A DNA stretch of 22,934 nt from a virus (Duplodnaviria > Heunggongvirae > Uroviricota > Caudoviricetes), in IMG/VR virus record IMGVR_UViG_2693429523_000013. One strand, written 5' to 3'. This document shows, piece by piece, positions 1 through 17,425 of the stretch; the stretch's first letter is position 1, and every line of letters begins with the position of its first letter. The notes below the pieces were generated by a model. The model was not told the origin of the DNA. It made no database searches and saw nothing but the letters and a program-made list of their open reading frames with translations. A program made the translations under genes and the position numbers.

Positions 1-348
1 CCGGAGCGCGGTAATCACCGGCACGACACCAGGTATCCCGGTTGACCAGCAGCATCAGGTGATAGTGTTTTTTACCTTTGCACTCCCCAAACTCCCGGGC
101 CCAGACGTAATGCAGGGTTGTGGGATGCACGCGTTTACCTTCCCGATGCTTACGTTTCTGGTAAGCGTCGATTCGGGCTTTCAGGGCATTGATGAAGCGG
201 GATATCACAGCTGCGTCCGTTGCTGCCGGTACATCCGGGAAACGCAGGTCAACCCGCAATGCCGTCAGGCGGGGATGAACATTCAGTGCGTGCCGCACCG
301 TCTCACGAATACGTTGCTGCCAGAAGGGGTTGTATTTGTAGGTCATGG
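1..348 (-). CDS. YagK/YfjJ-family (inovirus Gp2-like) protein, partial; C-terminal part lies beyond the window start
   Basis: Minus-strand frame is open from ATG (complement of 346-348) to the window edge; translation MTYKYNPFWQQRIRETVRHALNVHPRLTALRVDLRFPD... resembles CP4-prophage YfjJ/YagK proteins as recalled. Absent from the ORF track because it runs off the window. Confidence 0.5.
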
Positions 349-1945: not shown

Positions 1946-2152
1946 ATGGCTACCCCAGTTTCACTGATGGATGACCAGATGGTCGACATGGCATTTATCA
2001 CTCAACTGAACGGCCTGACAGATAAGTGGTTTTACAGGCTCATCAGGGATGGGGCCTTTCCGGCTCCCATCAAGCTGGGCCGCAGCTCCCGCTGGCTGAA
2101 AAGTGAAGTGGAAGCCTGGCTACAGGCGCGTATTGCACAGCCCCGCCCGTAA
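1946..2152 (+). CDS. alpA: AlpA-family phage/island transcriptional regulator (68 aa)
   Basis: MATPVSLMDDQ...LTDKWFYRLIRDGAFPAPIKLGRSSRWLKSEVEAWL is a typical AlpA HTH signature; GGAGG at 1932-1936 is 9 nt upstream of ATG 1946. The longer track ORF from 1751 has no comparable start context. Confidence 0.8.
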   Translation: MATPVSLMDDQMVDMAFITQLNGLTDKWFYRLIRDGAFPAPIKLGRSSRWLKSEVEAWLQARIAQPRP

Positions 2153-2246
2153 TTTCTGACCGTTATCCGTTCACCCGCAGCAGACGTAATCCCCGGCCTG
2201 CCGGCGGCATTCTGCTGCCTGTTATATCCCCGTGAGGAATATGAAA

Positions 2247-2849
2247 ATGAAACAACAGTATCAGACCCGCTACGAATGGCTCCACGAAAGCTACCAGAAA
2301 TGGCTGACCGGCTTCACCCGGCACGCCGTATCCTGGGGCGTGTGTCATCCGAATATCTACTACTTCCATAATCTGACGCCCGGTTGGGTGTCATTCAATG
2401 GTGAAAAACCGGAGATTGCCATCGTACCCCAGAGCCTGCACCGGCTGATTTATGGCCCTGACAAACGGGCCACGCCGCCCCTGGATGATGATCTGATTGT
2501 GAATTTATGCACCAGTGAACATCTGCTGGTTCATCATCCGATGCTGGAAGGCATTCTCCTGTCTGAATGTGAACGTCTGAGGCAGCGTTCTCTGGCAAAT
2601 AAACTGATCAGCCTCTTCCGTCAGTTTGGTGGCACGGAGTTGCGCCTCAAACTGGTCTGGCTTTGCTGGCTTGATTTAATGACCGGAAACAGCCTTGAAG
2701 ACTGGAAAGAGAACCTGAAACGGAAATCAGAAAAAGAGCTGGAGGAATGGATCATCAACCGTCAGAGGCAGAGCGCAGCACTGACGGATCTGATGGATCA
2801 GTACGTGCTCCTGGCATACCGCACAACGGTTGACGATAGCCGCAACTGA
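2247..2849 (+). CDS. hypothetical protein (200 aa), island-encoded
   Basis: Long ORF directly downstream of alpA; GAGGA at 2234-2238 is 8 nt before ATG 2247. No family recognised. Confidence 0.5.
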   Translation: MKQQYQTRYEWLHESYQKWLTGFTRHAVSWGVCHPNIYYFHNLTPGWVSFNGEKPEIAIVPQSLHRLIYGPDKRATPPLDDDLIVNLCTSEHLLVHHPMLEGILLSECERLRQRSLANKLISLFRQFGGTELRLKLVWLCWLDLMTGNSLEDWKENLKRKSEKELEEWIINRQRQSAALTDLMDQYVLLAYRTTVDDSRN

Positions 2850-4190
2850 TGCCGGTTGCTTCCGGAAGGTGTGACAAAATACGGAAATGATGATGCTCCC
2901 GGCCCCGCATGCTCACCTGCAGAGCGTGTTCGTCGTCATCATACTGAGCCATGACGGGCGTCTTAAGGGCATCCTGTCATTGCTGAGCAGGCAACACCAC
3001 CAGAGGAGCCACGGACAGGGATGTTCTTTACAGCCCGATACACGCCAGGTTCTCAGCAGACTGAATGTGCAGGTGCGGTTATTCACCAGAAATGGCATGC
3101 TGCGGTACATACCCATCCTGGTGACAATATGTACGTGGCGACAGCGATCCCGGCACTGTGGAAGAGACTCACTCAGCCTGCAGGATATTCTTTCCGGCAT
3201 CCGGGAATGTCCGCCTGAATGCAAACAGGATGATATTTGAATCCGTAATACTGTTCTTTCATCATAAATAATTTATGCAGATACAGTTAACCGTTACAGT
3301 AGCCGGTTTGTTTTACCGGGAAATAATATCCGTCAGACTGATGCCGGAACATATCTGAAACACGTTATGATGTTTTGTTATCAGAAATGTTGTATATTCT
3401 TATCCGTGGCGACAGTTTAATGCCCTCTGGTATCACCTTGGATTTGCCCCTATATTTACGGGACACGCCTCTTTTCATTGTGCTCCTTTTCAGACTTCAT
3501 TTTCCGTAAGTATTCCCCGGCATAAAGGAGGTACCTTTCTGGCGTTTATAACTCTCTTTATCGGTGACGCCGGTAATACAGGGAATACCACACCGACAAA
3601 CGAGGTATTAACAGACGATATTTCAGTGTCCATAATTTTTCTGTCCGGTTAAATAACGTCAGTCTGCTGCCCTCTGACTGTAATCATCAAAGCCGGAATG
3701 CATACCGGGTTACAACGTAAAAAAAGTGATGCTGGCCCCCGGTGCAGCTGGCGGGCGAAACATGTTTACCTTTCAATACCCCCTGTCTGCAGTCTCCACT
3801 CTTCCATCCTCTTAAGCTACGTCGGCCACATGAGTGCACTTCCATGATAACAGGTATTCCTGTCAGCATAACGAAGCAGGTTACCTTCCCTTCCTCCTGC
3901 ATTTCCTGTCAGAATGACTGTACAGCGCGCAGATTGCCTTTTTATTGACCACCTTAATATACCATTATAAACTTCTTTTTATCATGTTATTATCACCTTA
4001 TTATGTTTAATTTTTAAGCAACCGGAGAAAGAGGATGGTTCAGAAAATTTTGTCGGATAAGGTTATGAATGAAAGAACAAATGCGTATTACTCTTATTAT
4101 CTTGGAGAGCGTAATATCTCCGTACTACCCCTTAATGGTAACCGGCTCATTTAAACCGTCTGGTCTGTTTCCTCCGGCTCTACAAAAATA

Positions 4191-4868
4191 ATGTCCATCA
4201 TTTTTAATGGACACTATCGTATGAAACACCGGACCTGGATCACTGAAGCTTTACGTCTTCACTTTGAAGAACATTTACCCCGGGTTGTGGCCGGGCGTCG
4301 CCTGAGTGTACCAAAATCAACAGTTTGTAGTATGTTCGTGCGCTTTCGGAGAGCTGGCCTTTCGTGGCCTTTGCCCGCAGGCATGTCGGAGCAGGAACTT
4401 GATGCCTGCCTTTACGGACAATTTTCCACGGTACCAGTCGTACGTCCTGAAAGCACCGTTATATCCGAAGCCCCCGTGGTAAAAAAACGTCCCCGGCGGC
4501 CCAACTTCCCTTATGAGTTTAAAATCGCCTTAGTGGAGCAGTCACTACAGCCCGGAGCCTGTGTGGCGCAGATCGCCCGGGAAAACGGAATCAACGATAA
4601 CCTGCTCTTCAACTGGCGCCATCAATACCGGAAAGGTGGCCTGCTGCCTTCCGGAAAAAATATGCCGGCACTGCTTCCCGTGACGTTAACGCCGGAGCCG
4701 GATAATAAAATCCCGGCCCCCGCACAGGAACCAGAGCAGATAAATACACCGTCCGACAGTCTGTGTTGTGAGCTGGTTCTGCCGGCCGGAACTCTCAGGC
4801 TTAAAGGTAAACTGACGCCGGCGTTATTACAGACACTTATCCGCGAAATAAAAGGGAGCAGCCACTGA
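4191..4868 (+). CDS. tnpA: IS66-family accessory protein TnpA (orfA) with atypical N-terminal extension; start uncertain
   Basis: C-terminal part PRRPNFPYEFKIALVEQSLQPGACVAQIARENGINDNLLFNWRHQYRKGGL matches the IS66 TnpA HTH pattern. The first ~95 residues (..RRAGLSWPLPAGMSEQELDACLYGQ..) look like a separate transposase-type HTH. Confidence 0.65.
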   Translation: MSIIFNGHYRMKHRTWITEALRLHFEEHLPRVVAGRRLSVPKSTVCSMFVRFRRAGLSWPLPAGMSEQELDACLYGQFSTVPVVRPESTVISEAPVVKKRPRRPNFPYEFKIALVEQSLQPGACVAQIARENGINDNLLFNWRHQYRKGGLLPSGKNMPALLPVTLTPEPDNKIPAPAQEPEQINTPSDSLCCELVLPAGTLRLKGKLTPALLQTLIREIKGSSH

Positions 4869-5215
4869 TGATATCTCTCCCTGCAGGTTCGCGTATCTGG
4901 CTGGTTGCAGGTATCACCGATATGCGAAATGGCTTTAACGGCCTGGCATCAAAAGTTCAGAACGTCCTGAAGGATGACCCGTTCTCCGGACACCTGTTCA
5001 TCTTCCGCGGACGCCGGGGTGACCAGATAAAAGTGTTGTGGGCTGACAGTGACGGACTGTGCCTCTTCACCAAACGCCTGGAGCGGGGCCGCTTCGTCTG
5101 GCCAGTCACCCGTGACGGCAAGGTGCACCTTACTCCGGCTCAGTTATCCATGCTTCTTGAAGGTATCAACTGGAAGCACCCGAAACGAACGGAACGCGCT
5201 GGAATCCGCATATAA
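4868..5215 (+). CDS. tnpB: IS66-family TnpB (orf2), 115 aa
   Basis: MISLPAGSRIWLVAGITDMRNGFNGLASKVQ...GDQIKVLWADSDGLCLFTKRLERGRFVWP is the characteristic IS66 Orf2 sequence; start overlaps the tnpA stop. Confidence 0.9.
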   Translation: MISLPAGSRIWLVAGITDMRNGFNGLASKVQNVLKDDPFSGHLFIFRGRRGDQIKVLWADSDGLCLFTKRLERGRFVWPVTRDGKVHLTPAQLSMLLEGINWKHPKRTERAGIRI

Positions 5216-5234
5216 CCCGTTGTAAAGTGAGGAT

Positions 5235-6806
5235 ATGGACACCTCACTTGCTCATGAGAACGCCCGCCTGCGGGCACTGTTGCAGACGCAACAGGACACC
5301 ATCCGCCAGATGGCTGAATACAACCGCCTGCTCTCACAGCGGGTGGCGGCTTATGCTTCCGAAATCAACCGGCTGAAGGCGCTGGTTGCGAAACTGCAAC
5401 GTATGCAGTTCGGTAAAAGCTCAGAAAAACTTCGTGCAAAAACCGAACGGCAGATACAGGAAGCACAGGAGCGAATCAGCGCACTTCAGGAAGAAATGGC
5501 GGAAACGCTGGGTGAGCAATATGACCCGGTACTGCCATCCGCCCTGCGCCAGTCTTCAGCCCGTAAACCGTTACCGGCCTCACTTCCCCGTGAAACCCGG
5601 GTTATCCGGCCGGAAGAGGAATGCTGTCCTGCCTGTGGTGGTGAACTCAGTTCTCTGGGATGTGATGTGTCAGAGCAACTGGAGCTTATCAGCAGCGCCT
5701 TTAAGGTTATCGAAACACAACGTCCGAAACAGGCCTGTTGCCGGTGCGACCATATCGTGCAGGCACCAGTACCTTCAAAACCCATTGCACGCAGTTATGC
5801 CGGAGCGGGGCTTCTGGCCCATGTTGTCACCGGGAAATATGCAGACCATCTGCCGTTATACCGCCAGTCAGAAATATACCGTCGTCAGGGAGTGGAGCTG
5901 AGCCGTGCCACACTGGGGCGCTGGACAGGTGCTGTTGCTGAACTGCTGGAGCCGCTGTATGACGTCCTGCGCCAGTATGTGCTGATGCCCGGTAAAGTCC
6001 ATGCTGATGATATCCCCGTCCCGGTCCAGGAGCCGGGCAGCGGTAAAACCCGGACAGCCCGGCTGTGGGTCTACGTCCGTGATGACCGTAACGCCGGTTC
6101 ACAGATGCCCCCGGCGGTCTGGTTCGCGTACAGTCCGGACCGGAAAGGTATCCATCCACAAAATCACCTGGCCGGTTACAGCGGTGTGCTTCAGGCCGAT
6201 GCTTACGGTGGTTACCGGGCGTTATACGAATCCGGCAGAATAACGGAAGCCGCGTGTATGGCTCATGCCCGGAGAAAAATCCACGATGTGCATGCAAGAG
6301 CGCCCACCTACATCACCACGGAAGCCCTGCAGCGTATCGGTGAACTGTATGCCATCGAGGCAGAGGTCCGGGGCTGTTCAGCAGAACAGCGTCTGGCGGC
6401 AAGAAAAGCCAGAGCCGCGCCACTGATGCAGTCACTGTATGACTGGATACAGCAACAGATGAAAACACTGTCGCGTCACTCAGATACGGCAAAAGCGTTC
6501 GCATACCTGCTGAAACAGTGGGATGCACTGAACGTGTACTGCAGTAATGGCTGGGTGGAAATCGACAACAACATCGCAGAGAACGCCTTACGGGGAGTGG
6601 CCGTAGGCCGGAAAAACTGGATGTTCGCGGGTTCCGACAGCGGTGGTGAACATGCGGCGGTGTTGTACTCGCTGATCGGCACATGCCGTCTGAACAATGT
6701 GGAGCCAGAAAAGTGGCTGCGTTACGTCATTGAACATATCCAGGACTGGCCGGCAAACCGGGTACGCGATCTGTTGCCCTGGAAAGTTGATCTGAGCTCT
6801 CAGTAA
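5235..6806 (+). CDS. tnpC: IS66-family transposase TnpC (523 aa)
   Basis: N-terminal coiled-coil/leucine-zipper region, CxxC...CxxC zinc-finger motifs (CPACGG...CCRCDH) and a C-terminal DDE region typical of IS66 transposases; GAGG lies just upstream of ATG 5235. Confidence 0.9.
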
Positions 6807-6855
6807 ATATCAATACGGTTCTGACGAGTCGCTTACAAACAAAAGGCTGGTTAAC

Positions 6856-7077
6856 ATGAAAAAAATGGCAATTGTCGATAAAAAGGGTCTGGAGTACATT
6901 CCTAATATCGATCGTATGATCCGTGAGAAAGAATGTCGGGAGCTAACCACTCTTGCGAACAGCACACGCTGGAAGCTGGAGAAGGAAGGAAAATTTCCTA
7001 AGCGGATCAAGATTGGTTCCACTGCTGTTGCATATCGTCTTTCAGAAGTGCAGGCATGGATTAGGGGAGAGTGGTAA
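6856..7077 (+). CDS. AlpA-family HTH regulator (73 aa)
   Basis: ...ELTTLANSTRWKLEKEGKFPKRIKIGSTAVAYRLSEVQAWIRGE fits the AlpA/excisionase-like HTH pattern; begins 20 bp after the IS66 right end. Confidence 0.7.
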   Translation: MKKMAIVDKKGLEYIPNIDRMIREKECRELTTLANSTRWKLEKEGKFPKRIKIGSTAVAYRLSEVQAWIRGEW

Positions 7078-7128
7078 GAATTTAGACAGTGGATGTAATC
7101 CTATGGGGTAAACCCATAGGATTTGAAA

Positions 7129-8478
7129 TCACTTAAATTCAAATACGTGCGTAGTTGATGAGATTATATAATTAGGTGGTAAGTATTGAACTATTTCTCC
7201 ATCTTCTTCAAAAATATGAATAACTCTTGGGAATAATTCAGGGTGTATAGGATTTAATGCCTTCGGATTATGAAACATGTATATTGCTGTACACCATGGT
7301 TCTTGATATGAAGGTGCATTGACAAGAGCAGTAAAAGGCATTGGGGTACAGCCTTCATCAGTTTTAATACCTCTAACGATGGATTTGACATTTTTTTGTT
7401 CAATCCCTGCCACTACTCCCATCCTATCAAATTTTGGGATGGTGGCATGTGTCGCAAGTAATATGGCTGAGACATTCTCATTTTTATTAGAGCCGAAAAA
7501 ATTAGATTGTATACTTCGATTTTCAAATAAATGTTGTTCAATTTTACTTCCAGAATCCATATCTACACCATACAGATAGCTTTGTAGTGCTGGCATTGAT
7601 ATACTCATCGAAAATCTGCGTGAGTAATCGTGTAAAGCAATAATGAAAGGCTTTCCTTTTGTATGATCTAGTTCCCAATAGCATAATTTTAAGGGTTCAG
7701 GTTTATGCCTAACTTTCTTTAATAGAGTGCGGGCAAATTTGAATGGCATTTGTTCTTTTACATATCTCTGAAGATCTTCTACTGCCTCATGATCAAGTAT
7801 CAATTTCTCGGTAGGTTCCTCTTGTTCTGCAACTGTGGCAGCTTCTACAGCAATATCAATGCCATTTTTTGAGATAATATAATCAGGTTGAGCATAATCT
7901 CTGCATATTACGAAATCCATTTCGTAGAAAACTGCGTTTAGATAAAGTTCGAATAAGCGAGAGTTAAATGAAGCACTCTGGAAATCTCTGATGAATATTC
8001 CATCAGGATCTTTACACCAATAAGCTAACTCTTGCATAACAATAAATGCAGGATAGTGTTTGGGTTCCTCAAGTAGCATTCTTAGATAAACGTTTTTTTT
8101 ATGTTCTGGAACTTTGGCTAGGAATATTGAAAATGCCGACTCTGATTCGTCACCCTGTATAAAACAACCGTTCTTGTGTAGTGATAATAGCTCTGGTATG
8201 GCTTTTTCCATATCAGTAATTAAATCATCTTTAGATTCACGGGATACAATTACTTTAATCGCTCTAAATTTTTTATCTAAATCCCTACCTAGAAATATAG
8301 CGTTGTAATCATTATCTATTTTACAAAAAACAATTGTTGCTAAGATCGTGACATCATCCTTTATAAATTTGAACCAACAGATTTCCTCCGAAAAGGTTTT
8401 TACGTATGGTGTACGACCATAGAAAAATACATCAAATTGTTCTTTACTGATTTCTAGCATTTTGTGACTTGTTGTCAT
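7129..8478 (-). CDS. hypothetical protein, 449 aa, AT-rich cargo gene of unknown function
   Basis: Uninterrupted 1350-nt minus-strand ORF; AAGGA is 7 nt upstream of the ATG (complement of 8476-8478). Visibly AT-rich compared with flanking DNA (by eye, not computed). No confident family assignment. Confidence 0.7.
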   Translation of the reverse strand: MTTSHKMLEISKEQFDVFFYGRTPYVKTFSEEICWFKFIKDDVTILATIVFCKIDNDYNAIFLGRDLDKKFRAIKVIVSRESKDDLITDMEKAIPELLSLHKNGCFIQGDESESAFSIFLAKVPEHKKNVYLRMLLEEPKHYPAFIVMQELAYWCKDPDGIFIRDFQSASFNSRLFELYLNAVFYEMDFVICRDYAQPDYIISKNGIDIAVEAATVAEQEEPTEKLILDHEAVEDLQRYVKEQMPFKFARTLLKKVRHKPEPLKLCYWELDHTKGKPFIIALHDYSRRFSMSISMPALQSYLYGVDMDSGSKIEQHLFENRSIQSNFFGSNKNENVSAILLATHATIPKFDRMGVVAGIEQKNVKSIVRGIKTDEGCTPMPFTALVNAPSYQEPWCTAIYMFHNPKALNPIHPELFPRVIHIFEEDGEIVQYLPPNYIISSTTHVFEFK

Positions 8479-8501
8479 AGAAGAATCCTTTATGCAAATT
8501 A

Positions 8502-8696
8502 TCAGCCTTTAGGTGTTATTCCTTGTTTTATTAGTTCGGCACGAGCCAGTTCTTTTAGCCAGTTACCTAAGCTCATCCCTTCTTTGGCAGCGACATTAAC
8601 CATTTGTTCTTTTAATTCTGGGTTAATACGGACTTGGAATGCTGGTGCTTTACCTGCACCTTTCGGTTGTTTATCACGTTGAATGATAGTTGACAT
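8502..8696 (-). CDS. ribbon-helix-helix (Arc/CopG-like) DNA-binding protein, 64 aa; likely regulator of the downstream 449-aa gene
   Basis: ..FQVRINPELKEQMVNVAAKEGMSLGNWLKELARAEL.. matches the beta-strand/helix/helix pattern of Arc-type repressors. Its stop is 23 nt upstream of the 449-aa gene start on the same strand. Confidence 0.6.
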   Translation of the reverse strand: MSTIIQRDKQPKGAGKAPAFQVRINPELKEQMVNVAAKEGMSLGNWLKELARAELIKQGITPKG

Positions 8697-8738
8697 GTGT
8701 GTACCTATTGCTTAGTATGATTCTTGATAGGTACACAC
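8697..8738. promoter_or_regulatory. 12-bp perfect inverted repeat (GTGTGTACCTAT-N18-ATAGGTACACAC) directly upstream of the RHH gene; candidate operator or translational hairpin
   Basis: Arms at 8697-8708 and 8727-8738 are exact reverse complements. On the minus strand, the arm adjacent to the start codon contains the only SD-like sequence (AGGT) for the RHH gene. Confidence 0.4.
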
Positions 8739-8835
8739 CTTATCATGTTTTATTGCTATATAACAACGCCCTGCAGTGCTCGCAACACATACAGGGCGTC
8801 TAACCACCAACGATAGCAACAGTATCGAGGTAGCT

Positions 8836-9039
8836 ATGAGAAATCATACCACACACCCGCAAGGGCGGGATTCGCACAACCTGAATAAATACATCTGGCG
8901 TTTTATCGCCCTGAGCACCGCACAACCACGCGTAATACACATCGAGGCCGCCAGCGAACAGGAAGCCCGCCAGCAATCCCCAACTGGCTACGTGATGATA
9001 TTCGCCGCCCGTATTCGTCAGGAGGTGTGCCGTGCTTAA
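8836..9039 (+). CDS. hypothetical small protein (67 aa), first gene of the divergent plus-strand operon
   Basis: GAGG at 8827-8830 precedes ATG 8836. The track ORF from 8776 is longer but lacks an RBS. No family recognised. Confidence 0.35.
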   Translation: MRNHTTHPQGRDSHNLNKYIWRFIALSTAQPRVIHIEAASEQEARQQSPTGYVMIFAARIRQEVCRA

Positions 9040-9217
9040 AACCTTCCGTGTATTTGCCCGAGCTGTTAACCCACTGGGCCACACAATTGGTATCACTCAG
9101 AACGTGAAGGCTGTTAATGTTCAGACGGCTATTGCTGCGGTGAGAAGCGAATCATCAGAATATGGCTTATCACAAGTCATTATTTCAGCAGTGTATGAAT
9201 TAAAAGAGGTGCATTAA
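9032..9217 (+). CDS. hypothetical small protein (61 aa)
   Basis: GTG start at 9032 with GGAGG at 9021-9025 (6-nt spacing); overlaps the previous stop, suggesting translational coupling. Confidence 0.4.
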   Translation: MLKTFRVFARAVNPLGHTIGITQNVKAVNVQTAIAAVRSESSEYGLSQVIISAVYELKEVH

Positions 9218-9408
9218 TGAAGGAAATTACATTACACGAAGCCGCTGAACGTGCGCACCAGACAGAAATTATTTGCCGCCTTCTTGAGGTATACCCGAAC
9301 AAAATTACAGATGCTGATATATCCGCGCTGGCGAGCCTACTGGCGCGCCTTTCGGGAAGTGTCGCTAGTTTCCTGATTGAGGAAGAAAGTAAGCTGGTGG
9401 GGGATTAA
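9217..9408 (+). CDS. hypothetical small protein (63 aa)
   Basis: ATG overlaps the upstream stop (TAATG); AGAGG lies upstream. Confidence 0.45.
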   Translation: MKEITLHEAAERAHQTEIICRLLEVYPNKITDADISALASLLARLSGSVASFLIEEESKLVGD

Positions 9409-9630
9409 ATGAATACAGAACGGGAAGTCTTTTTTAAATTGTTAGCATGTGCAGAAAGTTCATTAACTTTAAATAATTCAGCAAAAGCAATATTAAATAT
9501 GTGGCTTGATTGCATAAATGACAATGAAGATGCAAATATTGCTTATGGCCTGTTGTCACTTATTGATGAATCAGCAGAAAAACTCAATGACGCAATAAAT
9601 AGTGCCCTGCTATCAAATAAGTCGAGTTAA
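9409..9630 (+). CDS. hypothetical small protein (73 aa), AT-rich
   Basis: Start immediately follows the previous stop and is preceded by a G-rich SD-like stretch. Confidence 0.45.
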   Translation: MNTEREVFFKLLACAESSLTLNNSAKAILNMWLDCINDNEDANIAYGLLSLIDESAEKLNDAINSALLSNKSS

Positions 9631-9647
9631 GTCGAGGAATAAATAAT

Positions 9648-9947
9648 ATGGAAATGAAAAATTCTGGCTTTATTGCCAGCGGCCCCGCTCGGCCTGAATT
9701 TATGAACGGCGATATTTACCGCGATAAATACGGCGGCACGGTAACGATTAAAGGCGTGGCAGAACGGCGCATCACTTACCGCCGTGAGGGGTATAGCTAT
9801 GACTGCGTGATGCCTGTTTATCAGTTCCGGCGTGATTTTTCCCTGGTATATGCCGCACCCCGCAGTAAGCCCATCAGCAGGGAAAAAGCGCGGGGAAACA
9901 TCCAGAAAATGAAAAGCATGATTAACGCATTCAGGGGCAAAAAATGA
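9648..9947 (+). CDS. hypothetical protein (99 aa)
   Basis: GAGGAA precedes the ATG; the stop overlaps the primase start (ATGA). Confidence 0.5.
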   Translation: MEMKNSGFIASGPARPEFMNGDIYRDKYGGTVTIKGVAERRITYRREGYSYDCVMPVYQFRRDFSLVYAAPRSKPISREKARGNIQKMKSMINAFRGKK

Positions 9948-11695
9948 AACTGGCACCGAACTTAAAAAAACAGCCACGCGACAGACTGACAGAGGTAATC
10001 ATCTTTGCAGGTAGTGATGCGTGGAGCCATGCGAAAGAGTGGCGGGAATGGGCGGGTAAACATATTGCCGCCGACGATGTGCCGCCTGTCGTGCTGGCTG
10101 ATGAGCAACTGAAAAATATCACCGATTACCGGATCATTGATGAAGATCGTCAGTGTGTGCGTGTTTACCGCGCAGGACATATCACAGAGCACAGCATGAC
10201 GCAGATTGTTACGTTACTGGCTGTGGCTGGAGTGAAGACCGTACACGAATACGCGGGGATTACTGACACCAGCCCAGTGGATTTATCCGAGCAGTTGCCG
10301 CGACTCAAAGAGGAATGCGAGCGTGGGGAAAGTCTGGTGCTTAATCTTCCGACGAAGCAAAAGGCGCAACTTTCACAGATGGCAGACAGTGAACGTGCAC
10401 AACTACTTGCCGATCGCTTTGATGGTGTGTGTGTTCATGCAGAAAGTGAAATCGTCCACGTATGGCGCGGCGGGGTATGGTGTCCGGTCAGCACAATGGA
10501 GCTGAGCCGCGAAATGGTGGCGATCTATTCAGAGCACAGGGCCACGTTCAGCAAACGTGTAATCAATAACGCCGTGGAAGCGTTAAAAGTTATTGCCGAC
10601 CCCATGGGGGAGCCGTCCGGTGATTTGCTACCGTTCACTAATGGTGTGCTTAACCTGAAAACGGGGGAATTTTCTCCGCACTCGCCGGAGCACTGGAGCA
10701 CCACGCACAATGGCATTGAGTACACGCCACCAGTAGCAGGGGAAAACATCCGCGATAATGCGCCAAATTTCCATAAATGGCTTGAACATGCTGCAAGAAA
10801 AGACCCGCGTAAGATGATGCGTATATGTGCCGCGTTATACATGATTATGGCGAACCGCTACGACTGGCAGATGTTCATTGAGGCCACCGGAGACGGGGGA
10901 AGCGGTAAGAGTACATTTACCCATATTGCCACCCTGCTTGCTGGCAAACAGAACACCGTAAGCGCGGAGATGACATCACTCGATGATGCAGGAGGGCGCG
11001 CGCAGGTTGTCGGGAGTCGTCTTATCGTCCTTGCCGATCAGCCGAAATATACGGGGGAAGGCACGGGCATCAAGAAAATCACGGGAGGCGATCCCGTTGA
11101 AATTAACCCGAAATATGAGAAGCGATTCACGACGATAATAAGGGCGGTGGTACTGGCAACCAATAACGACCCGATGATCTTTACCGAACGGGCCGGAGGT
11201 GTGTCACGCCGTCGGGTGATTTTCCGGTTCGACAACATTGTAAGGGAGGACGAAAAAGACAAGGAATTACCGGAAAAGATAGCGGCAGAAATCCCCGTAA
11301 TTATCCGCCGCTTGCTGGCTAATTTTGCTGCCCCTGAAAAGGCACGGGCTTTATTACTGGAACAGCGTGACGGTGATGAAGCTCTGGCAATAAAGCAGCA
11401 AACGGATCCGGTTGTTGAGCTTTGCGCGGCGCTGGAGTTTCTGGAGGAAGCTCGTGGGCTAATGATGGGCGGTGGTGGTGACACCGTGAAGTACACGACC
11501 AGAAACAGCCTTTACCGTGTCTATATGGCCTTCATGGCATACACAGGAAAGGGGAAATGTTTGAGCGTGAATGAGTTCGGAAAGGCTATGAGGTCAGCGG
11601 CGAAAGTTTACGGATATGAATATATTACGCGAAAAGTTAAGGGAGTCACGCAGACCAACGCAACGACTACTGATGATTGCGATGCGTTTTTATAA
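9944..11695 (+). CDS. phage/plasmid primase-helicase, P4-alpha C-terminal type (D5_N-like plus SF3 NTPase), 583 aa
   Basis: Walker A GDGGSGKST and Walker B-like RLIVLADQP; overall architecture is that of P4-family / PICI replication proteins as recalled. An iteron array lies directly downstream. Confidence 0.85.
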   Translation: MKLAPNLKKQPRDRLTEVIIFAGSDAWSHAKEWREWAGKHIAADDVPPVVLADEQLKNITDYRIIDEDRQCVRVYRAGHITEHSMTQIVTLLAVAGVKTVHEYAGITDTSPVDLSEQLPRLKEECERGESLVLNLPTKQKAQLSQMADSERAQLLADRFDGVCVHAESEIVHVWRGGVWCPVSTMELSREMVAIYSEHRATFSKRVINNAVEALKVIADPMGEPSGDLLPFTNGVLNLKTGEFSPHSPEHWSTTHNGIEYTPPVAGENIRDNAPNFHKWLEHAARKDPRKMMRICAALYMIMANRYDWQMFIEATGDGGSGKSTFTHIATLLAGKQNTVSAEMTSLDDAGGRAQVVGSRLIVLADQPKYTGEGTGIKKITGGDPVEINPKYEKRFTTIIRAVVLATNNDPMIFTERAGGVSRRRVIFRFDNIVREDEKDKELPEKIAAEIPVIIRRLLANFAAPEKARALLLEQRDGDEALAIKQQTDPVVELCAALEFLEEARGLMMGGGGDTVKYTTRNSLYRVYMAFMAYTGKGKCLSVNEFGKAMRSAAKVYGYEYITRKVKGVTQTNATTTDDCDAFL

Positions 11696-11711
11696 AAAAT
11701 GGCAATGGTTA

Positions 11712-11934
11712 TCTACCTTGTCTACCTGACTGAAAGAAAATACTTTTATTTCAATGTATTAATGCAGGTAGATAACTATTTTTCACTGTCTACCTGTTAT
11801 CTACCTTATCTACCCATTTTTGTAGACAGGTAAGGAGACGGGTAGAGATGAGGTAGACAGCTATTTGGGGCTGTCTACCTCCCTGAAACCCGCGCCATTA
11901 CTGGCCTGATAACTAATCAGGTAGACAAGGTAGA
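11712..11934. repeat. iteron array; candidate replication origin of the satellite-like module
   Basis: About 12 copies of the hexamer TCTACC / GGTAGA in both orientations (TCTACC at 11712, 11721, 11789, 11800, 11809, 11874; GGTAGA at 11767, 11841, 11852, 11920, 11929, plus a partial copy at 11822). An AT-rich spacer sits at 11731-11766, immediately 3' of the primase gene. Confidence 0.6.
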
Positions 11935-11984
11935 CAAGGTGGTGGTGCACAAAAAACTTTTTAAACGAGGGGGTAAAAATAAAA

Positions 11985-12242
11985 ATGCACACATCAGGAA
12001 AACTGAACAAACATATAAAGCCACATTACCGCGCCCTTGATATGGCTGAACACTGGCTAAGGGTGGCGATTAAGGCAATAGACCGCAACGCCGGGGAAGG
12101 ATACGCGAAAGCACATCCCGAACTGATAAGCGCATTCATGACAACGGCGGCTGCAAACTTTGCCACGCTGACCGAACGGGAGATTGCTGAAGCGGAGGAA
12201 GTGACAACAATCAATATTAAGTCCGGAGAGCAGGCAGCATGA
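11985..12242 (+). CDS. hypothetical protein (85 aa)
   Basis: GAGGGGG lies upstream of the ATG; the stop overlaps the ssb start (ATGA). Confidence 0.5.
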   Translation: MHTSGKLNKHIKPHYRALDMAEHWLRVAIKAIDRNAGEGYAKAHPELISAFMTTAAANFATLTEREIAEAEEVTTINIKSGEQAA

Positions 12243-12688
12243 CGGCGCAAATATCAGTTTACGGGCGGTTGGTGGACGACCCGCAGACAAAACAGACCAG
12301 CAAGGGCACCCCCATGACGCTGGCGCGTATGGCGGTATCACTGCCCTGCAGTCAGTCGGATGACGGTCTGGCGACGTTGTGGTTATCTGTCCTGGCGTTT
12401 GGCAGACAAGCCGACGCGCTGGCAAAGCATCACAAAGGCGAACTCCTGAGCGTGGCGGGTAACATGCAGATGAGCCAGTGGACTGGACAGAACGGCGAAA
12501 CGCGGCAGGGCTGGCAGGTTATCGCAGACAGCGTAATCAGTGCGCGATCGGTGCGACCGGGCGGCAAAAAAGGCCAACAGGGGCAGGCTACTGACGCACT
12601 GAACAGAGCAAAACAACAGGCAGATCAGCAAGGAAGCCAGCCACCAGAGGGAGATAATGAGCAATGGGGAGATGATATCCCGTTTTAA
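12239..12688 (+). CDS. ssb: single-stranded DNA-binding protein (149 aa)
   Basis: OB-fold region aligns by eye with E. coli SSB (ISVYGRLVDDPQ.., WLSVLAFGRQAD, GELLSVAGNMQMSQWTGQNGE..); Gly/Gln-rich linker; acidic C-terminal tip ...WGDDIPF matches the SSB DDDIPF tail. Confidence 0.85.
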   Translation: MTAQISVYGRLVDDPQTKQTSKGTPMTLARMAVSLPCSQSDDGLATLWLSVLAFGRQADALAKHHKGELLSVAGNMQMSQWTGQNGETRQGWQVIADSVISARSVRPGGKKGQQGQATDALNRAKQQADQQGSQPPEGDNEQWGDDIPF

Positions 12689-12904
12689 ATATTGCCAATA
12701 AAAAAAGCCGGAAAAAATAAATTTTCCGGCATGCTACATAAATCCCGACCAAAGGGAGTGAAGATATTAACACTAATTGTCCGCACTGAAGTTGTCACCC
12801 CAAAACTTTATACAACATTGCACTCGGTTGCATGTGTTCGCATGACAAATATCGGTGATAGCATATATCCACAATTATTTTTAATGAATGCAAAGAGGAT
12901 GCGT

Positions 12905-13945
12905 ATGGTTGATTTATATTCGCCTACCCAGCTTGTACAGGTGGTTAATGCTGTAGATGTACAAAAACAACTAAATGCGTTGTTTACCAGTTTGTTTTTT
13001 ACTCGCTCGGTAATGTTTGGATCGCGCGATATTATTCTTGATACAATCGACGATCCAAATATCCCAATTGCAGCGTTTTGTTCTCCTATGGTGGGTAGTA
13101 AAGTTTCACGTGACGAAGGGTACGAATCAAAAACAATTCGTCCAGGCTATATGAAGCCGAAAAGCAGCATTGATCCAAATAAGTTAGCTGTGCGCCCTGC
13201 TGGTGTATCACCTGAGCAATACAATGCTTTTGGGGCGCGTAATATTAAAGTTAAACAGGCGATTGTAAATCAAGCTAAAGCTATTCGTGCACGTATTGAA
13301 TGGCTTGCCGTTCAGGCAATCACAACGGGGAAAAATATCATTGAGGGCGATGGTATTGAACGTTATGAGCTGGACTGGAATATTAAACCACAAAATATCA
13401 TCACTCAGTCTGGCGGTACTGAGTGGTCAGGTAAGGATAAAGAAACTTTTGATCCAAATGATGATATTGAGAGCTACGCAGAATTTAGTGAGGGCGTCAC
13501 TAATATCATCATTATGGGCGGTAATGTATGGAAGAAATACCGTTCATTCAGAGCGATAAAAGAGGCTCTGGATACCCGTCGTGGTTCTAATTCCGAACTG
13601 GAAACGGCCCTTAAAGACCTTGGTGATTCGGTGAGTTTTAAAGGATATATGGGCGATGTTGCGATTGTTGTTTACAGCGGGCGTTATACCGACGAGGACG
13701 GAACTGAAAAACATTTCCTTGATCCTGATTTGATGGTGCTTGGCAATACGGCTCTTCAGGGGATTGTCGCCTATGGCGGTATTCAGGATCCGGAGCTAAT
13801 CCGAATGGGGCTGACTAAAGCCGAACTTGCACCGAAAAACTATATTGTGCCTGGTGATCCGGCTATTGAATATGTGCAGACACATTCAGCACCACAGCCA
13901 ATACCGGCCCGCATCAATCGTTTTGTTACCGTTCGCATTGGCTAA
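12905..13945 (+). CDS. major capsid protein, lambda gpE family (346 aa), divergent from lambda
   Basis: Aligns by eye along its length with lambda gpE (PGYMKPK.., NIITQSGGTEWSGKDK.., DTRRGSNSELETA identical, C-terminal ..GDPA.E...QSAP..). AGAGGA is 5 nt before ATG 12905; the track ORF start at 12692 adds 71 residues with no homology. Confidence 0.8.
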   Translation: MVDLYSPTQLVQVVNAVDVQKQLNALFTSLFFTRSVMFGSRDIILDTIDDPNIPIAAFCSPMVGSKVSRDEGYESKTIRPGYMKPKSSIDPNKLAVRPAGVSPEQYNAFGARNIKVKQAIVNQAKAIRARIEWLAVQAITTGKNIIEGDGIERYELDWNIKPQNIITQSGGTEWSGKDKETFDPNDDIESYAEFSEGVTNIIIMGGNVWKKYRSFRAIKEALDTRRGSNSELETALKDLGDSVSFKGYMGDVAIVVYSGRYTDEDGTEKHFLDPDLMVLGNTALQGIVAYGGIQDPELIRMGLTKAELAPKNYIVPGDPAIEYVQTHSAPQPIPARINRFVTVRIG

Positions 13946-13954
13946 GGGGGAGCA

Positions 13955-14296
13955 ATGGCTACTCATTACACTGAACTCATGGCTGGCACTGAAGCACTGG
14001 TGACTACGCTGGGGATATTTTCAGCTAATAAAGGGGTAATTCCTGCATTTACGCCACTGATGCAGGAAGATGCAACAGGTGCACTGGTGGTATGGGATGG
14101 TTCGAGCGTAGGTAAAGCGGTTTATGTTTCCGCTGTACAAATCGACACCGCGAAAAAAACACAGGCTCAGGTCTATAAGACAGGTGTCTTAAATGTTGAT
14201 GCTCTGAACTGGCCTGAGTCTGTAAAAGAACTGTCAGTAAAGATTGCAGCGTTTGTTGGCTCAGGTATTTCTGTTCAGCCGCTGGCTCGTGTGTAA
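13955..14296 (+). CDS. head decoration protein, lambda gpD-like (113 aa)
   Basis: ..TPLMQEDATGALVVWDGSSVGKAVYVSAVQ...YKTGVLNVDALNWPE...AAFVGSGISVQPL parallels lambda gpD (..TPLM...KLVAWDG...YKSGTF..VLWPE..AFAGTAISIV) as recalled. AAGGGGGA RBS present. Confidence 0.7.
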   Translation: MATHYTELMAGTEALVTTLGIFSANKGVIPAFTPLMQEDATGALVVWDGSSVGKAVYVSAVQIDTAKKTQAQVYKTGVLNVDALNWPESVKELSVKIAAFVGSGISVQPLARV

Positions 14297-14307
14297 AGGG
14301 GGATACA

Positions 14308-14691
14308 ATGCAAAATGATTACAATGACCTTAAGCCAATTGCCGAAATGATGTACCCGAATCCAGCTGTAGAGGAATTAAAAGCTATCGCTGACAAAATG
14401 TGTTTAAGCGAGCGCCTTGTTGATATGAATCAGGTGATGGAAATTACAACCCTGAGTCGGCGTACACTGCTAAACCTTGAGGCTAGTGGAGAGTTCCCGG
14501 AGCGTGTGCAGGTTACGGAAGGGCGTAAGGCCTGGTATTTAAGTGAAGTGATCGACTGGATAAATAATATTCCTCGCGCTTCTGAATATTGCCGCGTACC
14601 TGTCCCAAAAAAGCCAGATGCGGCGCTATGCCTCAAGATTGAGCGTGTACGCCGCAATGCACGGGATGGTCGCTATAAGCTGATTGGTTGA
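14308..14691 (+). CDS. AlpA-type HTH domain protein with ~40-aa N-terminal extension (127 aa)
   Basis: Residues ~40-90 (MNQVMEITTLSRRTLLNLEASGEFPERVQVTEGRKAWYLSEVIDWI) fit the AlpA HTH pattern; AAGGGGGA RBS before ATG 14308. Confidence 0.6.
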   Translation: MQNDYNDLKPIAEMMYPNPAVEELKAIADKMCLSERLVDMNQVMEITTLSRRTLLNLEASGEFPERVQVTEGRKAWYLSEVIDWINNIPRASEYCRVPVPKKPDAALCLKIERVRRNARDGRYKLIG

Positions 14692-14744
14692 TGAAATTAG
14701 GGCCCGCTCTGGCTGGCGGGTCCTTTCCGGCGATCTGACAGGCT

Positions 14745-14912
14745 ACGGGGCGTCAGGCGCGCGGATTTTCGCTATTTATGAAAATTTTCCGGTTTAAGGC
14801 GTTTCCGTTCTTCTTCGTCGTAACTTAATGTTTTTATTTAAAATACCCCCTGAAAAGAAAGGAAACGACAGGTGCTGAAAGCGAGCTTTTTGGCCTCTGT
14901 CGTTTCCTTTCT
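14745..14912 (+). promoter_or_regulatory. lambda-type cos region: cosN-like site (~14745-14762) and cosB with three CGTTTCC-core R elements
   Basis: 14760-14936 reads almost exactly as the recalled lambda left-end/cosB sequence upstream of Nu1. R3 is at 14791-14797, inverted R2 at 14861-14867 and R1 at 14901-14907; R2/R1 lie in a 16-bp perfect inverted repeat (14856-14871 / 14897-14912). The 12-mer at 14748-14759 is GGGCGTCAGGCG rather than the recalled lambda GGGCGGCGACCT. Confidence 0.7.
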
Positions 14913-14936
14913 CTGTTTTTGTCCGTGGAATGAACA

Positions 14937-15488
14937 ATGGAAGTCAACAAAAAGCAGCTGGCTGACATTTTCGGTGCGAGTATCCGTACCATTCAGAACT
15001 GGCAGGAACAGGGAATGCCCGTTCTGCGAGGCGGTGGCAAGGGTAATGAGGTGCTTTATGACTCTGCCGCCGTTATAAGATGGTATGCCGAAAGGGATGC
15101 TGAAATTGAGAACGAAAAGCTGCGCCGGGAAGTTGAAGAACTGCGGCAGGCCAGCGAGACAGATCTCCAGCCAGGGACTATTGAGTACGAACGCCATCGA
15201 CTTACGCGTGCGCAGGCCGACGCACAGGAACTGAAGAATGCCAGCGAAACAGGTGAGGTAATTGACACTGCATTTGCGACTTATGCCTTGTCGAAATTAA
15301 CTGGGGAAGTTGGAGCAATCATTGATAGTCTTCCACTTGCGATCTGTCGACAGTTTCCTGGCATGGAAAAACGGTATCAGGACTTCATTAAGATGGAGGT
15401 CAGTAAAGCATTTATTCGAGCTTACCAGATCTCAGATAACATTCCAGATATGGCTGAAAGGTATATCAAGGATAATCAGCGAAGTTAA
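14937..15488 (+). CDS. Nu1: terminase small subunit Nu1, chimeric: lambda-type N-terminal DNA-binding domain with a divergent C-terminal domain
   Basis: First ~100 residues (MEVNKKQLADIFGASIRTIQNWQEQGMPVLRGGGKGNEVLYDSAAVI.WYAERDAEIENEKLRREVEELRQASE.DLQPGTIEYERHRLTRAQADAQELKNA) match lambda gpNu1 as recalled; the C-terminal ~80 residues are similar in length but clearly different. Confidence 0.9.
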   Translation: MEVNKKQLADIFGASIRTIQNWQEQGMPVLRGGGKGNEVLYDSAAVIRWYAERDAEIENEKLRREVEELRQASETDLQPGTIEYERHRLTRAQADAQELKNASETGEVIDTAFATYALSKLTGEVGAIIDSLPLAICRQFPGMEKRYQDFIKMEVSKAFIRAYQISDNIPDMAERYIKDNQRS

Positions 15489-15544
15489 AACAAATGAAAC
15501 CATAGGTAGGAAGAGTGCTTAGGTGGTTCTTTGTTGCTTAAAAG

Positions 15545-15577
15545 TCGCCAGTAAAACTGGCGATAGATTTTATTTGT
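15545..15577 (+). terminator. rho-independent terminator-like hairpin after Nu1
   Basis: 8-bp stem TCGCCAGT/ACTGGCGA (15545-15552 / 15557-15564) with a 4-nt loop, followed by the T-rich run tagattttatttg. Lies between convergent Nu1 and the DUF2971-like gene. Confidence 0.45.
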
Positions 15578-15594
15578 CAAAAGCATTTGACCTT

Positions 15595-16500
15595 TTAAGG
15601 TAGTGGTACTATGGATATTTTTCTGTCGTTCCCAAATGAACTTTTAAATAATTTCGCTCTTGGATACATTTTAACTAGTGATGCGACTTCATCGAACTCG
15701 CTGGCATCAAAAAGAGGACCAAGTATTACAGATTTTAACTCAAAAGGGTGAAATTTTAAGTCGCTATATTGACCAGTGCTATTTGGCCTAGCGTAGGTTG
15801 AAATTCTCCACTCTCTTTCATATGCCCATTCTTCTGTTTTTATGAATATTATCTCATTATTGATATATTCAATTGACTTATTGTCTGGCATGAAAAGCAA
15901 CTCGGCCATCCCTTCAGCAGTGTGAGTTAGAGGCATTTCATCTGTGTATTTCATAGGTTTGGCTATTAACCAAGCGCTATCCAGAAAGTCTACACAATCA
16001 AATTCGATAACTATACCTTTATATTTATCGGCATAGTGATTCCACATAGGAGTGATTATAGGGCTCTCAGATAAACACAAAATCCTTCTGTTATTAAGCA
16101 TTCCTCGCCAGACATCTTTCATTTCTTGTATTGCCGCAGGAGCGCCAATCCCAACTGGTGGAATGTTTACCATTTCTTGAAATCTTTCAATTAATCCTGC
16201 GGGTATGCCTAAAGGAAATGACTTTTGGAAATCACTTAGCATTGTTCTAATTCTAGGGTTTAAATTTTGTATGTCTTCTCTGGGGGTAATCAACTCCGCT
16301 ATTAACTTGCGGGCTAAAGCTTTGCCAATATTAATTTCGTTAATACCAGGCATAACTTCTCTTGGAACATCAAAAGGGTCATTAAATAGGACCGGAGAAC
16401 TCCATCTAAGGCTGCATGAATCAAGAACAATCTTCGCGGTATTCAACGACATATACTTATAAAATGTTGAGCGTTCATGCATTCTGTTGGGTGAGCGCAT
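15595..16500 (-). CDS. DUF2971-like protein (301 aa), AT-rich moron
   Basis: N-terminal ..STFYKYMSLNTAKIVLDSCSLRWSSPVLFNDPFDV.. matches the recalled DUF2971 signature (YKY.S...L...lw.S.p..FNDPFD). AGAGGA is 4 nt upstream of the ATG (complement of 16498-16500). AT-rich by eye. Confidence 0.7.
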   Translation of the reverse strand: MRSPNRMHERSTFYKYMSLNTAKIVLDSCSLRWSSPVLFNDPFDVPREVMPGINEINIGKALARKLIAELITPREDIQNLNPRIRTMLSDFQKSFPLGIPAGLIERFQEMVNIPPVGIGAPAAIQEMKDVWRGMLNNRRILCLSESPIITPMWNHYADKYKGIVIEFDCVDFLDSAWLIAKPMKYTDEMPLTHTAEGMAELLFMPDNKSIEYINNEIIFIKTEEWAYEREWRISTYARPNSTGQYSDLKFHPFELKSVILGPLFDASEFDEVASLVKMYPRAKLFKSSFGNDRKISIVPLP

Positions 16501-16648
16501 AGATTCCTCTTGTTAAATGAGTGATGGTTTTCATCCATGTATTGCACGTTGTATTGCATTCAAGGATTTTCCATTTCAATTCTATAGCTAAAACGTAATC
16601 AAATCATTCACATCCTTTCATATTTGACTCATGTAGCCGAAGCATGAG

Positions 16649-17425
16649 GTGAATCCGCAGATGACCCTGCGTCGCCTGCCGGATGAAGATCCGCAGAATC
16701 TGGCGGACCCGGCTTACCGCCGCCGTCGCATCATCATGCAGAACATGCGAGACGAAGAGCTGGCCATTGCTCAGGTCGAAGAGATGCAGGCAGTTTCTGC
16801 TGTGCTTAAGGGCAAATACACCATGACCGGTGAAGCCTTCGATCCGGTTGAGGTGGATATGGGCCGCAGTGCGGCGAACAACATCACACAGTCCGGTGGT
16901 ACGGAGTGGAGCAAGCGTGACAAGTCCACGTATGACCCGACCGACGATATCGAAGCCTATGCGCTGAACGCCAGCGGAGTGGTGAATATCATCGTGTTTG
17001 ATCCGAAAGGCTGGGCGCTGTTCCGTTCCTTCAAAGCCGTCAAGGAGAAGCTGGATACCCGTCGCGGCTCTAATTCCGAGCTGGAGACAGCGGTAAAAGA
17101 CCTGGGCGAAGCGGTGTCCTATAAGGGGATGTATGGCGATACGGCGATCGTCGTGTATTCCGGACAGTACGTGGAAAACGACGTCAAAAAGAACTTCCTT
17201 CCGGACAACACGATGGTGCTGGGGAACTCTCAGGCACGCGGTCTGCGCACCTATGGCTGCATTCAGGATGCGGACGCACAGCGCGAAGGTATTAACGCCT
17301 CTGCCCGCTACCCGAAAAACTGGGTGACCACCGGCGATCCGGCGCGTGAGTTCACCATGATTCAGTCAGCACCGCTGATGCTGCTGGCTGACCCTGATGC
17401 GTTCGTGTCCGTACAACTGGCGTAA
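16649..17425 (+). pseudogene. E: major capsid protein E, lambda-type, 5'-truncated (lacks ~80 N-terminal codons)
   Basis: Translation MNPQMTLRRLPDEDPQNLADPAYRRRRIIMQNMRDEE... to ..FVSVQLA is near-identical to lambda gpE residues ~84-341 as recalled. Lambda similarity begins near 16637; an in-frame TAG sits at 16634-16636 and upstream DNA is unrelated. Confidence 0.8.

Follow-up and report, generated by a model that had tools for sequence, protein, structure and literature searches.

The window, by which we mean the whole analysed stretch of 22,934 nucleotides, carries on its plus strand an ORF at 14937-15488 that runs from ATG to TAA and encodes a protein of 183 amino acids. This ORF is a genuine small terminase gene (terS) of the Nu1 family. 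Its product matches Pfam Phage_Nu1 (PF07471) with E=3.6e-84 and 280.8 bits (cut-off 30), covering residues 1-162 of the 164-position profile, and at full length it matches the PHROG TerS family phrog_57 (1.3e-65). Its winged-HTH domain is encoded beside a cosB with R sites, an arrangement that marks members of the Nu1 family.

The carrier of terS is a PICI of the helper-embedded class (HE-PICI) and belongs to the capE type known from the literature; it is inserted into gene E of a prophage resembling lambda, and the satellite context supposed by the initial annotation is therefore correct. The element spans 6836-16644 (plus strand), is truncated on its left side and is 97-98% collinear with the satellites of three related loci (L001, L007, L008). 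HE-PICIs of the E:Phage_cap_E group lie inside and co-oriented with gene E of lambdoid prophages, with an att core of 10 bp, and they are built from a Bro zone, a Replication zone and a Late zone, in that order, which include AlpA, a primase and a capsid gene acquired by capture (PMC10111431). The element in the window follows the same plan: on the plus strand we find, in this order, DUF4222, D5_N primase, SSB, Phage_cap_E, HDPD and AlpA. A major capsid protein gene of the satellite itself, similar to lambda E, lies at 12905-13945, plus strand (Phage_cap_E, 2.1e-41; annotated as major capsid protein in L001), its lambda-D-like head decoration gene at 13955-14296, plus strand (HDPD, 4.4e-15), and an AlpA-family regulator at 14308-14691, plus strand, immediately 5´ of cos (Phage_AlpA, 7.6e-9). 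Downstream of terS and convergent with it, a DUF2971 cargo gene occupies 15595-16500 on the minus strand and is a candidate defence gene (Pfam DUF2971; PADLOC PDC-S31, 2.9e-32).

The right end of the element is marked by the attR core AGCCGAAGCA at 16635-16644 (plus strand), recognized as a 10-bp repeat common to attL and attR in L001 and by alignment to lambda E; it resembles the identity block of PMC10111431 in length. At attR the prophage gene E resumes at lambda E nt 236, which places the integration in gene E at the att core. This 3´ fragment of the helper capsid gene (16635-17425, plus strand; Phage_cap_E) is 97% identical to lambda E nt 236-1026, and FI (Packaging_FI) and tail genes follow. 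The satellite encodes its own E-like capsid and D-like decoration proteins (12905-14296) while interrupting the E gene of its helper. To our knowledge, published work has found the capsid genes of PICIs not to be needed for transfer. In the variable (Bro) zone, a cargo gene of 449 amino acids at 7129-8478 (minus strand) strongly matches PD-T7-1, an anti-phage defence gene (PADLOC, E=1e-153), and has no Pfam match.

The left part of the element is missing. An integrase of the HE-PICI clade is present in six of six related loci and absent from the window, where ISCro1 of the IS66 family (4138-6836; tnpA, tnpB and tnpC at 4191-6806) abuts the element at 6836, just past the place expected for the integrase. 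We conclude from the missing integrase that this copy is a truncated member of the HE-PICIs. Positions 1-4138 belong to an unrelated island with an AlpA-like gene at 1751-2149. Through the IS66 element this island is fused to inner sequence of the satellite, and what has gone are the integrase, attL and the helper arm from Nu1 to E´. No such junction of island, IS66 and satellite occurs in the collection of complete E. coli genomes. In L001 and L006-L010 the element lies between the two halves of E; attL is absent from the window.

The closest E. coli match (NZ_CP062853, 99.8%) shows the complete arrangement. Its element of about 10 kb comprises integrase, HTH, Icd-like, DUF4222, primase, SSB, E-like capsid, D-like decoration, AlpA, cos, terS and DUF2971, with the helper's own nohD (Nu1) and TerL about 15 kb upstream and FI and tail genes downstream. 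The same satellite-in-E arrangement is found in five further genomes (six related loci in all), and the order terS-DUF2971-attR-´E recurs in 32 complete E. coli genomes. An assembly artefact hiding a downstream A gene is rejected on the strength of these 32 genomes. The terminator said to stand in place of A is another matter: there is indeed no TerL gene 3´ of terS, but the terminator-like hairpin at 15544-15564 (plus strand), which has a T-run and separates terS from the convergent DUF2971 gene, is a single hit within the expectation from shuffled sequence. In L001 the 5´ halves of the helper cos-Nu1 (482-1010) and the satellite cos-terS (16001-16545) form a direct repeat of about 530 bp, its copies 96-97% identical and about 15.5 kb apart, and the same holds for L006-L010. 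RecA-mediated deletion between these copies would take the head genes of the helper and most of the satellite.

Between AlpA and terS lies a complete cos region on the plus strand. A cosQ-like block, GGGTCCTTTCCGG, at 14718-14730 has an identical counterpart in the helpers. The 12-nt cohesive-end sequence of cosN, GGGCGTCAGGCG, at 14748-14759 differs in 5 of 12 positions from that of lambda and the helpers, GGGCGGCGACCT. A lambda-type cosB follows at 14800-14912, in which the R and I1 sequences are exactly those of lambda; its elements R3 (14800-14815), I1 (14821-14847), R2 (14856-14871) and R1 (14897-14912) are all intact. This region is identical to lambda in 164 of 167 positions (98.2% over 14771-14936). 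The variant GGGCGTCAGGCG is present in all seven satellites read, and GGGCGGCGACCT in lambda and all six resident helpers. If packaging of a chromosome started at a satellite cos and finished at a helper cos, its two ends would not be complementary. The Kosakonia satellite and its helper have in common a third cosN variant, GGGCGGCAGACT.

In three lambda-like phage contigs of IMG/VR (L146, L180 and L191) the variant cosN GGGCGTCAGGCG precedes a normal Nu1. The gpA of L180, the sole contig to span the whole gene, is 99.4% identical to that of lambda; L146 and L191 reach just the first 130-150 residues of gpA. The presence of GGGCGTCAGGCG beside lambda-type terminase genes in three phages implies that a lambda-type terminase apparently tolerates this overhang and that the variant is not exclusive to satellites. 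The idea that the cosN variant belongs to satellites alone and goes together with the chimeric TerS described below is rejected on two grounds, since satellites of the 11capE type without terS have the same cosN and since these phage contigs combine it with normal Nu1 and gpA. An AlpA gene stands directly upstream of cos in 52 of the 57 IMG/VR contigs sharing this cosN; of the rest, three are the lambda-like phages, and in two the contig does not extend far enough upstream.

The terS gene itself consists of two parts of different history. Residues 1-102 are identical to lambda Nu1 in 100 of 102 positions, the two substitutions being K48R and A75T. Residues 103-183 still align to lambda Nu1 without a gap, with 29 of 81 positions identical; at protein level this half is about 36-40% identical to lambda's, and the last 40 residues about 29% (counted from the alignment). 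In the DNA, identity to lambda is 98.4% over the 5´ 306 nt and about 52% over the 3´ 246 nt. The maximum chi-square breakpoint falls at nt 15245, with 5 mismatches in 308 positions before it and 113 in 235 after it (Fisher p=5e-43). Such a sharp break indicates a recombination junction and not drift. Simple drift of lambda Nu1, which would have undone the proposal of a mosaic gene, is rejected by this breakpoint together with relatives of 69-71% identity among native satellite TerS proteins.

The N-module (aa 1-102; 14937-15242, plus strand) is a DNA-binding domain (winged HTH) plus alpha3 linker of the lambda/helper type. It matches PDB entries 6HN7_B (1.3e-58) and 1J9I, and its DNA is 99.3% identical to the nohA allele of the helper in L008. 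The C-module (aa 103-183; 15243-15488, plus strand) is, by homology, a satellite-lineage half for oligomerisation and putatively for TerL docking; among the PDB matches no solved structure covers residues 99-181. By tblastn it finds lambda-type Nu1 at 40% over 75 aa (E=3e-15), and in isolation it matches the phage TerS families phrog_1790 (1.4e-20) and phrog_57 (5.9e-17). Judged by these similarities, it is a divergent homologous Nu1 C-terminal domain from a lineage seen in satellites only. Residues 100-181 form the TerL-interacting part of TerS and the other half binds cosB (PMC6739421; PMC9026076). The junction in terS coincides with this experimentally defined boundary. The initial annotation was thus right that the first ~100 residues and the upstream cosB are essentially those of lambda and that the protein is a true chimera with its junction at the functional border; its description of the last ~80 residues as unrelated sequence does not agree with the gapless alignment, the tblastn match and the TerS PHROG matches.

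The two halves of the gene also differ in their variability. Among 5,426 complete E. coli genomes, 32 contain the DNA of the C-half, with identity of 99.7% or more throughout; there is almost no diversity of this half within the chimeric lineage. In the same elements, cos and the N-half are 93-100% identical and form a patchwork of alleles that also occur in helper prophages. A variable 5´ part next to a nearly uniform 3´ part suggests that the former keeps exchanging with helpers and the latter is clonal. Relatives of the C-half with 67-71% amino acid identity were found in a Kosakonia satellite (L011) and in a metagenome satellite contig (L005). Both have the synteny MCP-Dec-AlpA-cos-TerS, with insertion in gene E wherever the contig includes the insertion site. 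L011 is a satellite in gene E, and one contig (L038) also holds its helper's own lambda-type Nu1. In L011 and L005 the native satellite TerS has a different, shorter winged-HTH N-half (beginning MAQHLLNKKNMAKSCKVG) and a different cosB; native satellite TerS thus comes with its own DNA-binding domain and its own cosB, which holds for L149 as well. Comparison between satellite lineages gives dN/dS of 0.063 and ~0.10 for the C-module, that is, strong purifying selection, and these values imply that the module has been functional in the long term across satellite lineages. The C-types have kept a motif in their C-terminal tail, [IL]P-x-[ML]-x3-Y, which lambda has as well.

Other combinations of TerS halves exist as well. 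The reciprocal chimera, a satellite N-half joined to a lambda-type C-half, is encoded in Superficieibacter (L012, 9722-10288) and in an IMG/VR satellite (L061, 9683-10288), with a junction a few codons 3´ of that in the window. Nine further E. coli satellite contigs carry a third type of TerS with its own cosB, and one library protein (P0037) combines a lambda-like N-half with the C-half of this third type. Every junction lies in or beside the conserved hinge RLT[NR]AQADAQELKNA.

Several smaller observations concern relatives of this gene. A small conserved ORF (65-93 aa, ending ...WKKP[DE]...RR; phrog_1561) follows native and third-type satellite terS genes in L149, L161, L144 (about 700 nt 3´ of cosN) and L012 (10279-10473). 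It overlaps or abuts the terS stop and occupies the position of the gpA start in lambda. In Klebsiella (L003 and L004, 10001-10399), a 132-aa remnant of satellite-type TerS, 76-78% identical, has lost the DNA-binding domain, and alignment fails over the ~25 residues at its C terminus. The island there is of a different kind (AlpA, AAA_25, NikA-like, TrbL), and the remnant adjoins an FRG-domain gene and a gene of 449/454 aa. The fragments in L005 and Klebsiella were considered as true proteins devoid of the DNA-binding domain and rejected: the L005 gene is interrupted by a nonsense codon and the Klebsiella copy has altered ends.

The initial annotation had supposed that the protein needs a different, non-resident large terminase subunit, and had proposed to look for the donor of the C-half by alignment to lambdoid Nu1 proteins. 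A tblastn search of 50,697 phage records with the C-half returned nothing closer than the lambda-type match of 40%. The scan of IMG/VR gave four satellite matches of 99-100%, the next one (54%) being a reciprocal chimera, and among GTDB species representatives the sole relative was the Kosakonia satellite at 69%; above 55% identity, these two scans yielded satellites only. An exhaustive HMMER search of 1.84 billion protein representatives produced 93 hits with only two clusters above 50%, of which one is a partial TerS of 98 aa from E. coli and the other the truncated copy of the Klebsiella island; neither of these fragments is a full-length phage TerS. A phage donor lineage for the C-half is accordingly rejected, as no collection searched contains a close phage match, and in none of these four collections does the C-type stand beside a TerL gene. 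Wherever an embedded C-type satellite was examined, on the other hand, its resident helper has a lambda-type TerL; identity to gpA is 99.4-100% in the six E. coli loci and 88% in Kosakonia, where the C-half of the helper Nu1 is of the lambda type too. A non-resident large subunit is thus unsupported, since the C-type was not found beside TerL in any collection searched. The simplest reading is that the C-type would be the satellite lineage's own way to engage the lambda-type motor, and not a key to a foreign one.

Comparison with known systems clarifies what kind of protein this is. It shares with lambda gpNu1 the family over its full length, nearly identical residues 1-102, the site 3´ of cosQ-cosN-cosB and the order R3-I1-R2-R1; it differs in the C-terminal 81 residues (~36-40% identical), in lacking an overlapping TerL gene and in being encoded by a satellite. 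The lambda-21 chimeric TerS proteins of Feiss and co-workers separate cosB specificity from TerL specificity (PMC9026076). They resemble the window TerS in having N- and C-halves of different lineages with a junction in the middle of the protein; their parents, however, are two phages and they act with a cognate TerL, whereas the window TerS descends on one side from a satellite TerS, and its partner would be the TerL of the helper. The Rpp proteins (RppA/RppC of EcCICFT073) have 139-154 aa, are without a TerL-binding tail, bind the helper TerS and go with a PICI-specific cosB (PMC6739421). Like them, the window TerS is the product of a satellite winged-HTH gene right after the PICI cos, placed at the TerS step of helper packaging. 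Unlike them, it has 183 aa, a full Nu1 C-half and a helper-type cosB, and it matches RppC weakly, in the HTH only (E=0.038). Membership among the Rpp proteins is rejected for these reasons, the cosB being 98% lambda. Pac SaPIs encode a TerS that recognises a satellite-specific pac site, works with the large terminase of the helper and redirects packaging. The window TerS is likewise a small terminase encoded by a satellite and presumably partnered by a helper TerL, but its recognition half and its site are the helper's own; a satellite-specific site, which characterizes a redirecting TerS of the SaPI type, is not what we find, as both DNA-binding domain and cosB are of the helper type.

Among HE-PICIs, Tommasini, Mageeney and Williams (2023) listed 201 at the capE site and described 11capE as an element that 'lacks terS' and shares 258 bp of cos-like sequence with its helper (PMC10111431). 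With 11capE the element in the window shares its att site in gene E, the order of primase, SSB, MCP, Dec, AlpA and cos, and the variant cosN. 11capE of strain NRG857c is 97.7% identical to it through codon ~12 of terS; from there it differs, having a 64-aa terS remnant followed by HEPN and DUF262 in the slot of DUF2971, where the window has a full chimeric terS and DUF2971. These alternatives make 14972-16623 behave as a swappable cargo or defence slot. The DUF2971 gene accompanies the chimeric terS in all IMG/VR contigs of the chimeric type.

The chimeric gene is often lost. A stop at codon 22, in the recognition helix (W22, TGG to TAG; equivalent to window position 15001), is present in 17 of 32 E. 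coli copies (53%) and in three of eight IMG/VR contigs, among them L007, L008, L009, L141, L159 and L181. The satellites with W22* sit in helpers at different chromosomal sites, and their terS copies show scattered later changes (G33D, F140L, E144G). The other 15 of the 32 copies, the window's included, are intact, and no frameshifts or second stops occur in the terS sequences read. In W22* copies an AGGAG motif stands 6 nt upstream of the M27 ATG, making a restart product without DNA-binding domain conceivable. Of 49 satellite contigs in IMG/VR sharing the cosN, eight have the chimeric terS, nine the third type and about 32 no terS. With more than half of E. coli copies knocked out, terS is probably a dispensable accessory. 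Moreover, the helper Nu1 reads the same cosB, so that the chimeric TerS would be redundant and would not change specificity. Since its DNA-binding half and its cosB are both of the helper type, the gene confers no new site specificity and no redirection; the redirection of packaging originally suggested is further weakened by the codon-22 stops and by the lack of terS in most sibling satellites. The copy in the window may never be used at all, as this satellite is without integrase, attL and the left arm of the helper.

We suggest, as the probable explanation, that the gene encodes a TerS of an HE-PICI made by recombination at the hinge, an auxiliary protein which would load the lambda-type TerL of the helper at a lambda-type cosB. 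Homologous or short-homology recombination at RLT[NR]AQADAQELKNA would have created it. The cos-Nu1 parent in a helper prophage would have contributed a 'specificity cassette', composed of cosB and the DNA-binding domain (aa 1-102), and a TerS parent of the satellite lineage the self-assembly and TerL-docking half (aa 103-183). If expressed, intact TerS would dimerise through its lambda-type DNA-binding domain and bind R3, R2 and R1 of cosB, while its satellite-type C-half would recruit gpA of the helper. The gpA would then cut cosN and package satellite concatemers. In much of the population, the chimeric gene is on its way to loss. What counts against this explanation is the low identity to lambda (about 29%) of the last 40 residues, the incomplete state of the satellite in the window, and the cosN overhang of the satellite, which differs from that of the resident helpers and which these may not cut efficiently.

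The same observations of loss lend themselves to another reading, namely that terS is a non-functional relic, which arose neutrally when two cos-Nu1 repeats ~15 kb apart in the same prophage recombined, and which is decaying and plays a role in neither partner. The frequent codon-22 stop with its accompanying substitutions, the absence of terS from most siblings and the crippling of the window element by IS66 would fit this well; the intact copies (15 of 32), with neither frameshifts nor second stops in the sequences read, and the strong purifying selection on the C-module in other satellites do not, and we regard a pure relic as possible yet not very probable. Alternatively, the protein might be an interference device. 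Its helper-type DNA-binding domain would occupy the helper cosB or form mixed dimers with helper Nu1, and the foreign C-half would either not recruit the TerL of the helper or assemble it wrongly, which would poison helper packaging in a dominant-negative, Rpp/Ppi-like manner. A block of helper packaging at the TerS step is known from PICIs (PMC6739421), the C-half has diverged strongly from its helper counterpart, and the residues of the dimer interface in the DNA-binding domain (11-13, 43, 47, 51; PMC9026076) are identical to lambda's, for which reason heterodimers of TerS and helper Nu1 are to be expected. Such a block, however, would strike the satellite too, whose cosB is the same as the helper's, and the gene is often lost or knocked out. 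Furthermore, where this C-type is part of a native satellite TerS, the cosB is the satellite's own and TerL can come from a helper only, which implies that the C-type may well bind helper TerL. We therefore find interference unlikely.

The idea of a C-half matched to the TerL of a non-resident helper, redirecting a foreign motor to lambda-type cos, starts from the fact that this half carries TerL specificity in lambda and 21 (PMC9026076) and is here only ~36-40% identical to lambda's. It is highly improbable, given that no phage or prophage in the collections searched has the C-type beside TerL and that every embedded C-type satellite sits in a helper with lambda-type TerL. There is also a joint reading, rather doubtful in our opinion, in which the swap of TerS half-genes at the hinge lets a satellite switch between a private and a shared cos, with the satellite half as a possible weapon. 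Private would mean its own cosB and DNA-binding domain, shared the cosB-domain cassette of the helper, and the satellite half for assembly and TerL docking would be kept in both states. This half might out-compete or poison helper Nu1, for example in mixed dimers, and the product restarted at M27 in W22* copies, devoid of the DNA-binding domain, could titrate TerL. If that were true, the chimera would be an active weapon in the conflict between satellite and helper, and not a redundant accessory.

Homologues of terS encoded by PICIs (PMC6092414), capture of late genes by HE-PICIs (PMC10111431) and domain chimeras of TerS from lambda and 21 (PMC9026076) are already known. In the literature searched, we found no description of a helper/satellite hybrid TerS, of its reciprocal forms or of reassortment centred on the hinge. 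No new principle of packaging is revealed by the auxiliary TerS that we favour, and the gene appears to be dispensable in most copies. Its presence nevertheless corrects the published impression that HE-PICIs of the capE type lack terS, and the natural TerS chimeras, along with the natural cosN variant, could be used to map the unsolved interface between TerS and TerL of lambda. Taken together, the halves of cos-type TerS responsible for site recognition and for motor recruitment reassort naturally between satellite and helper, and all four combinations are found.
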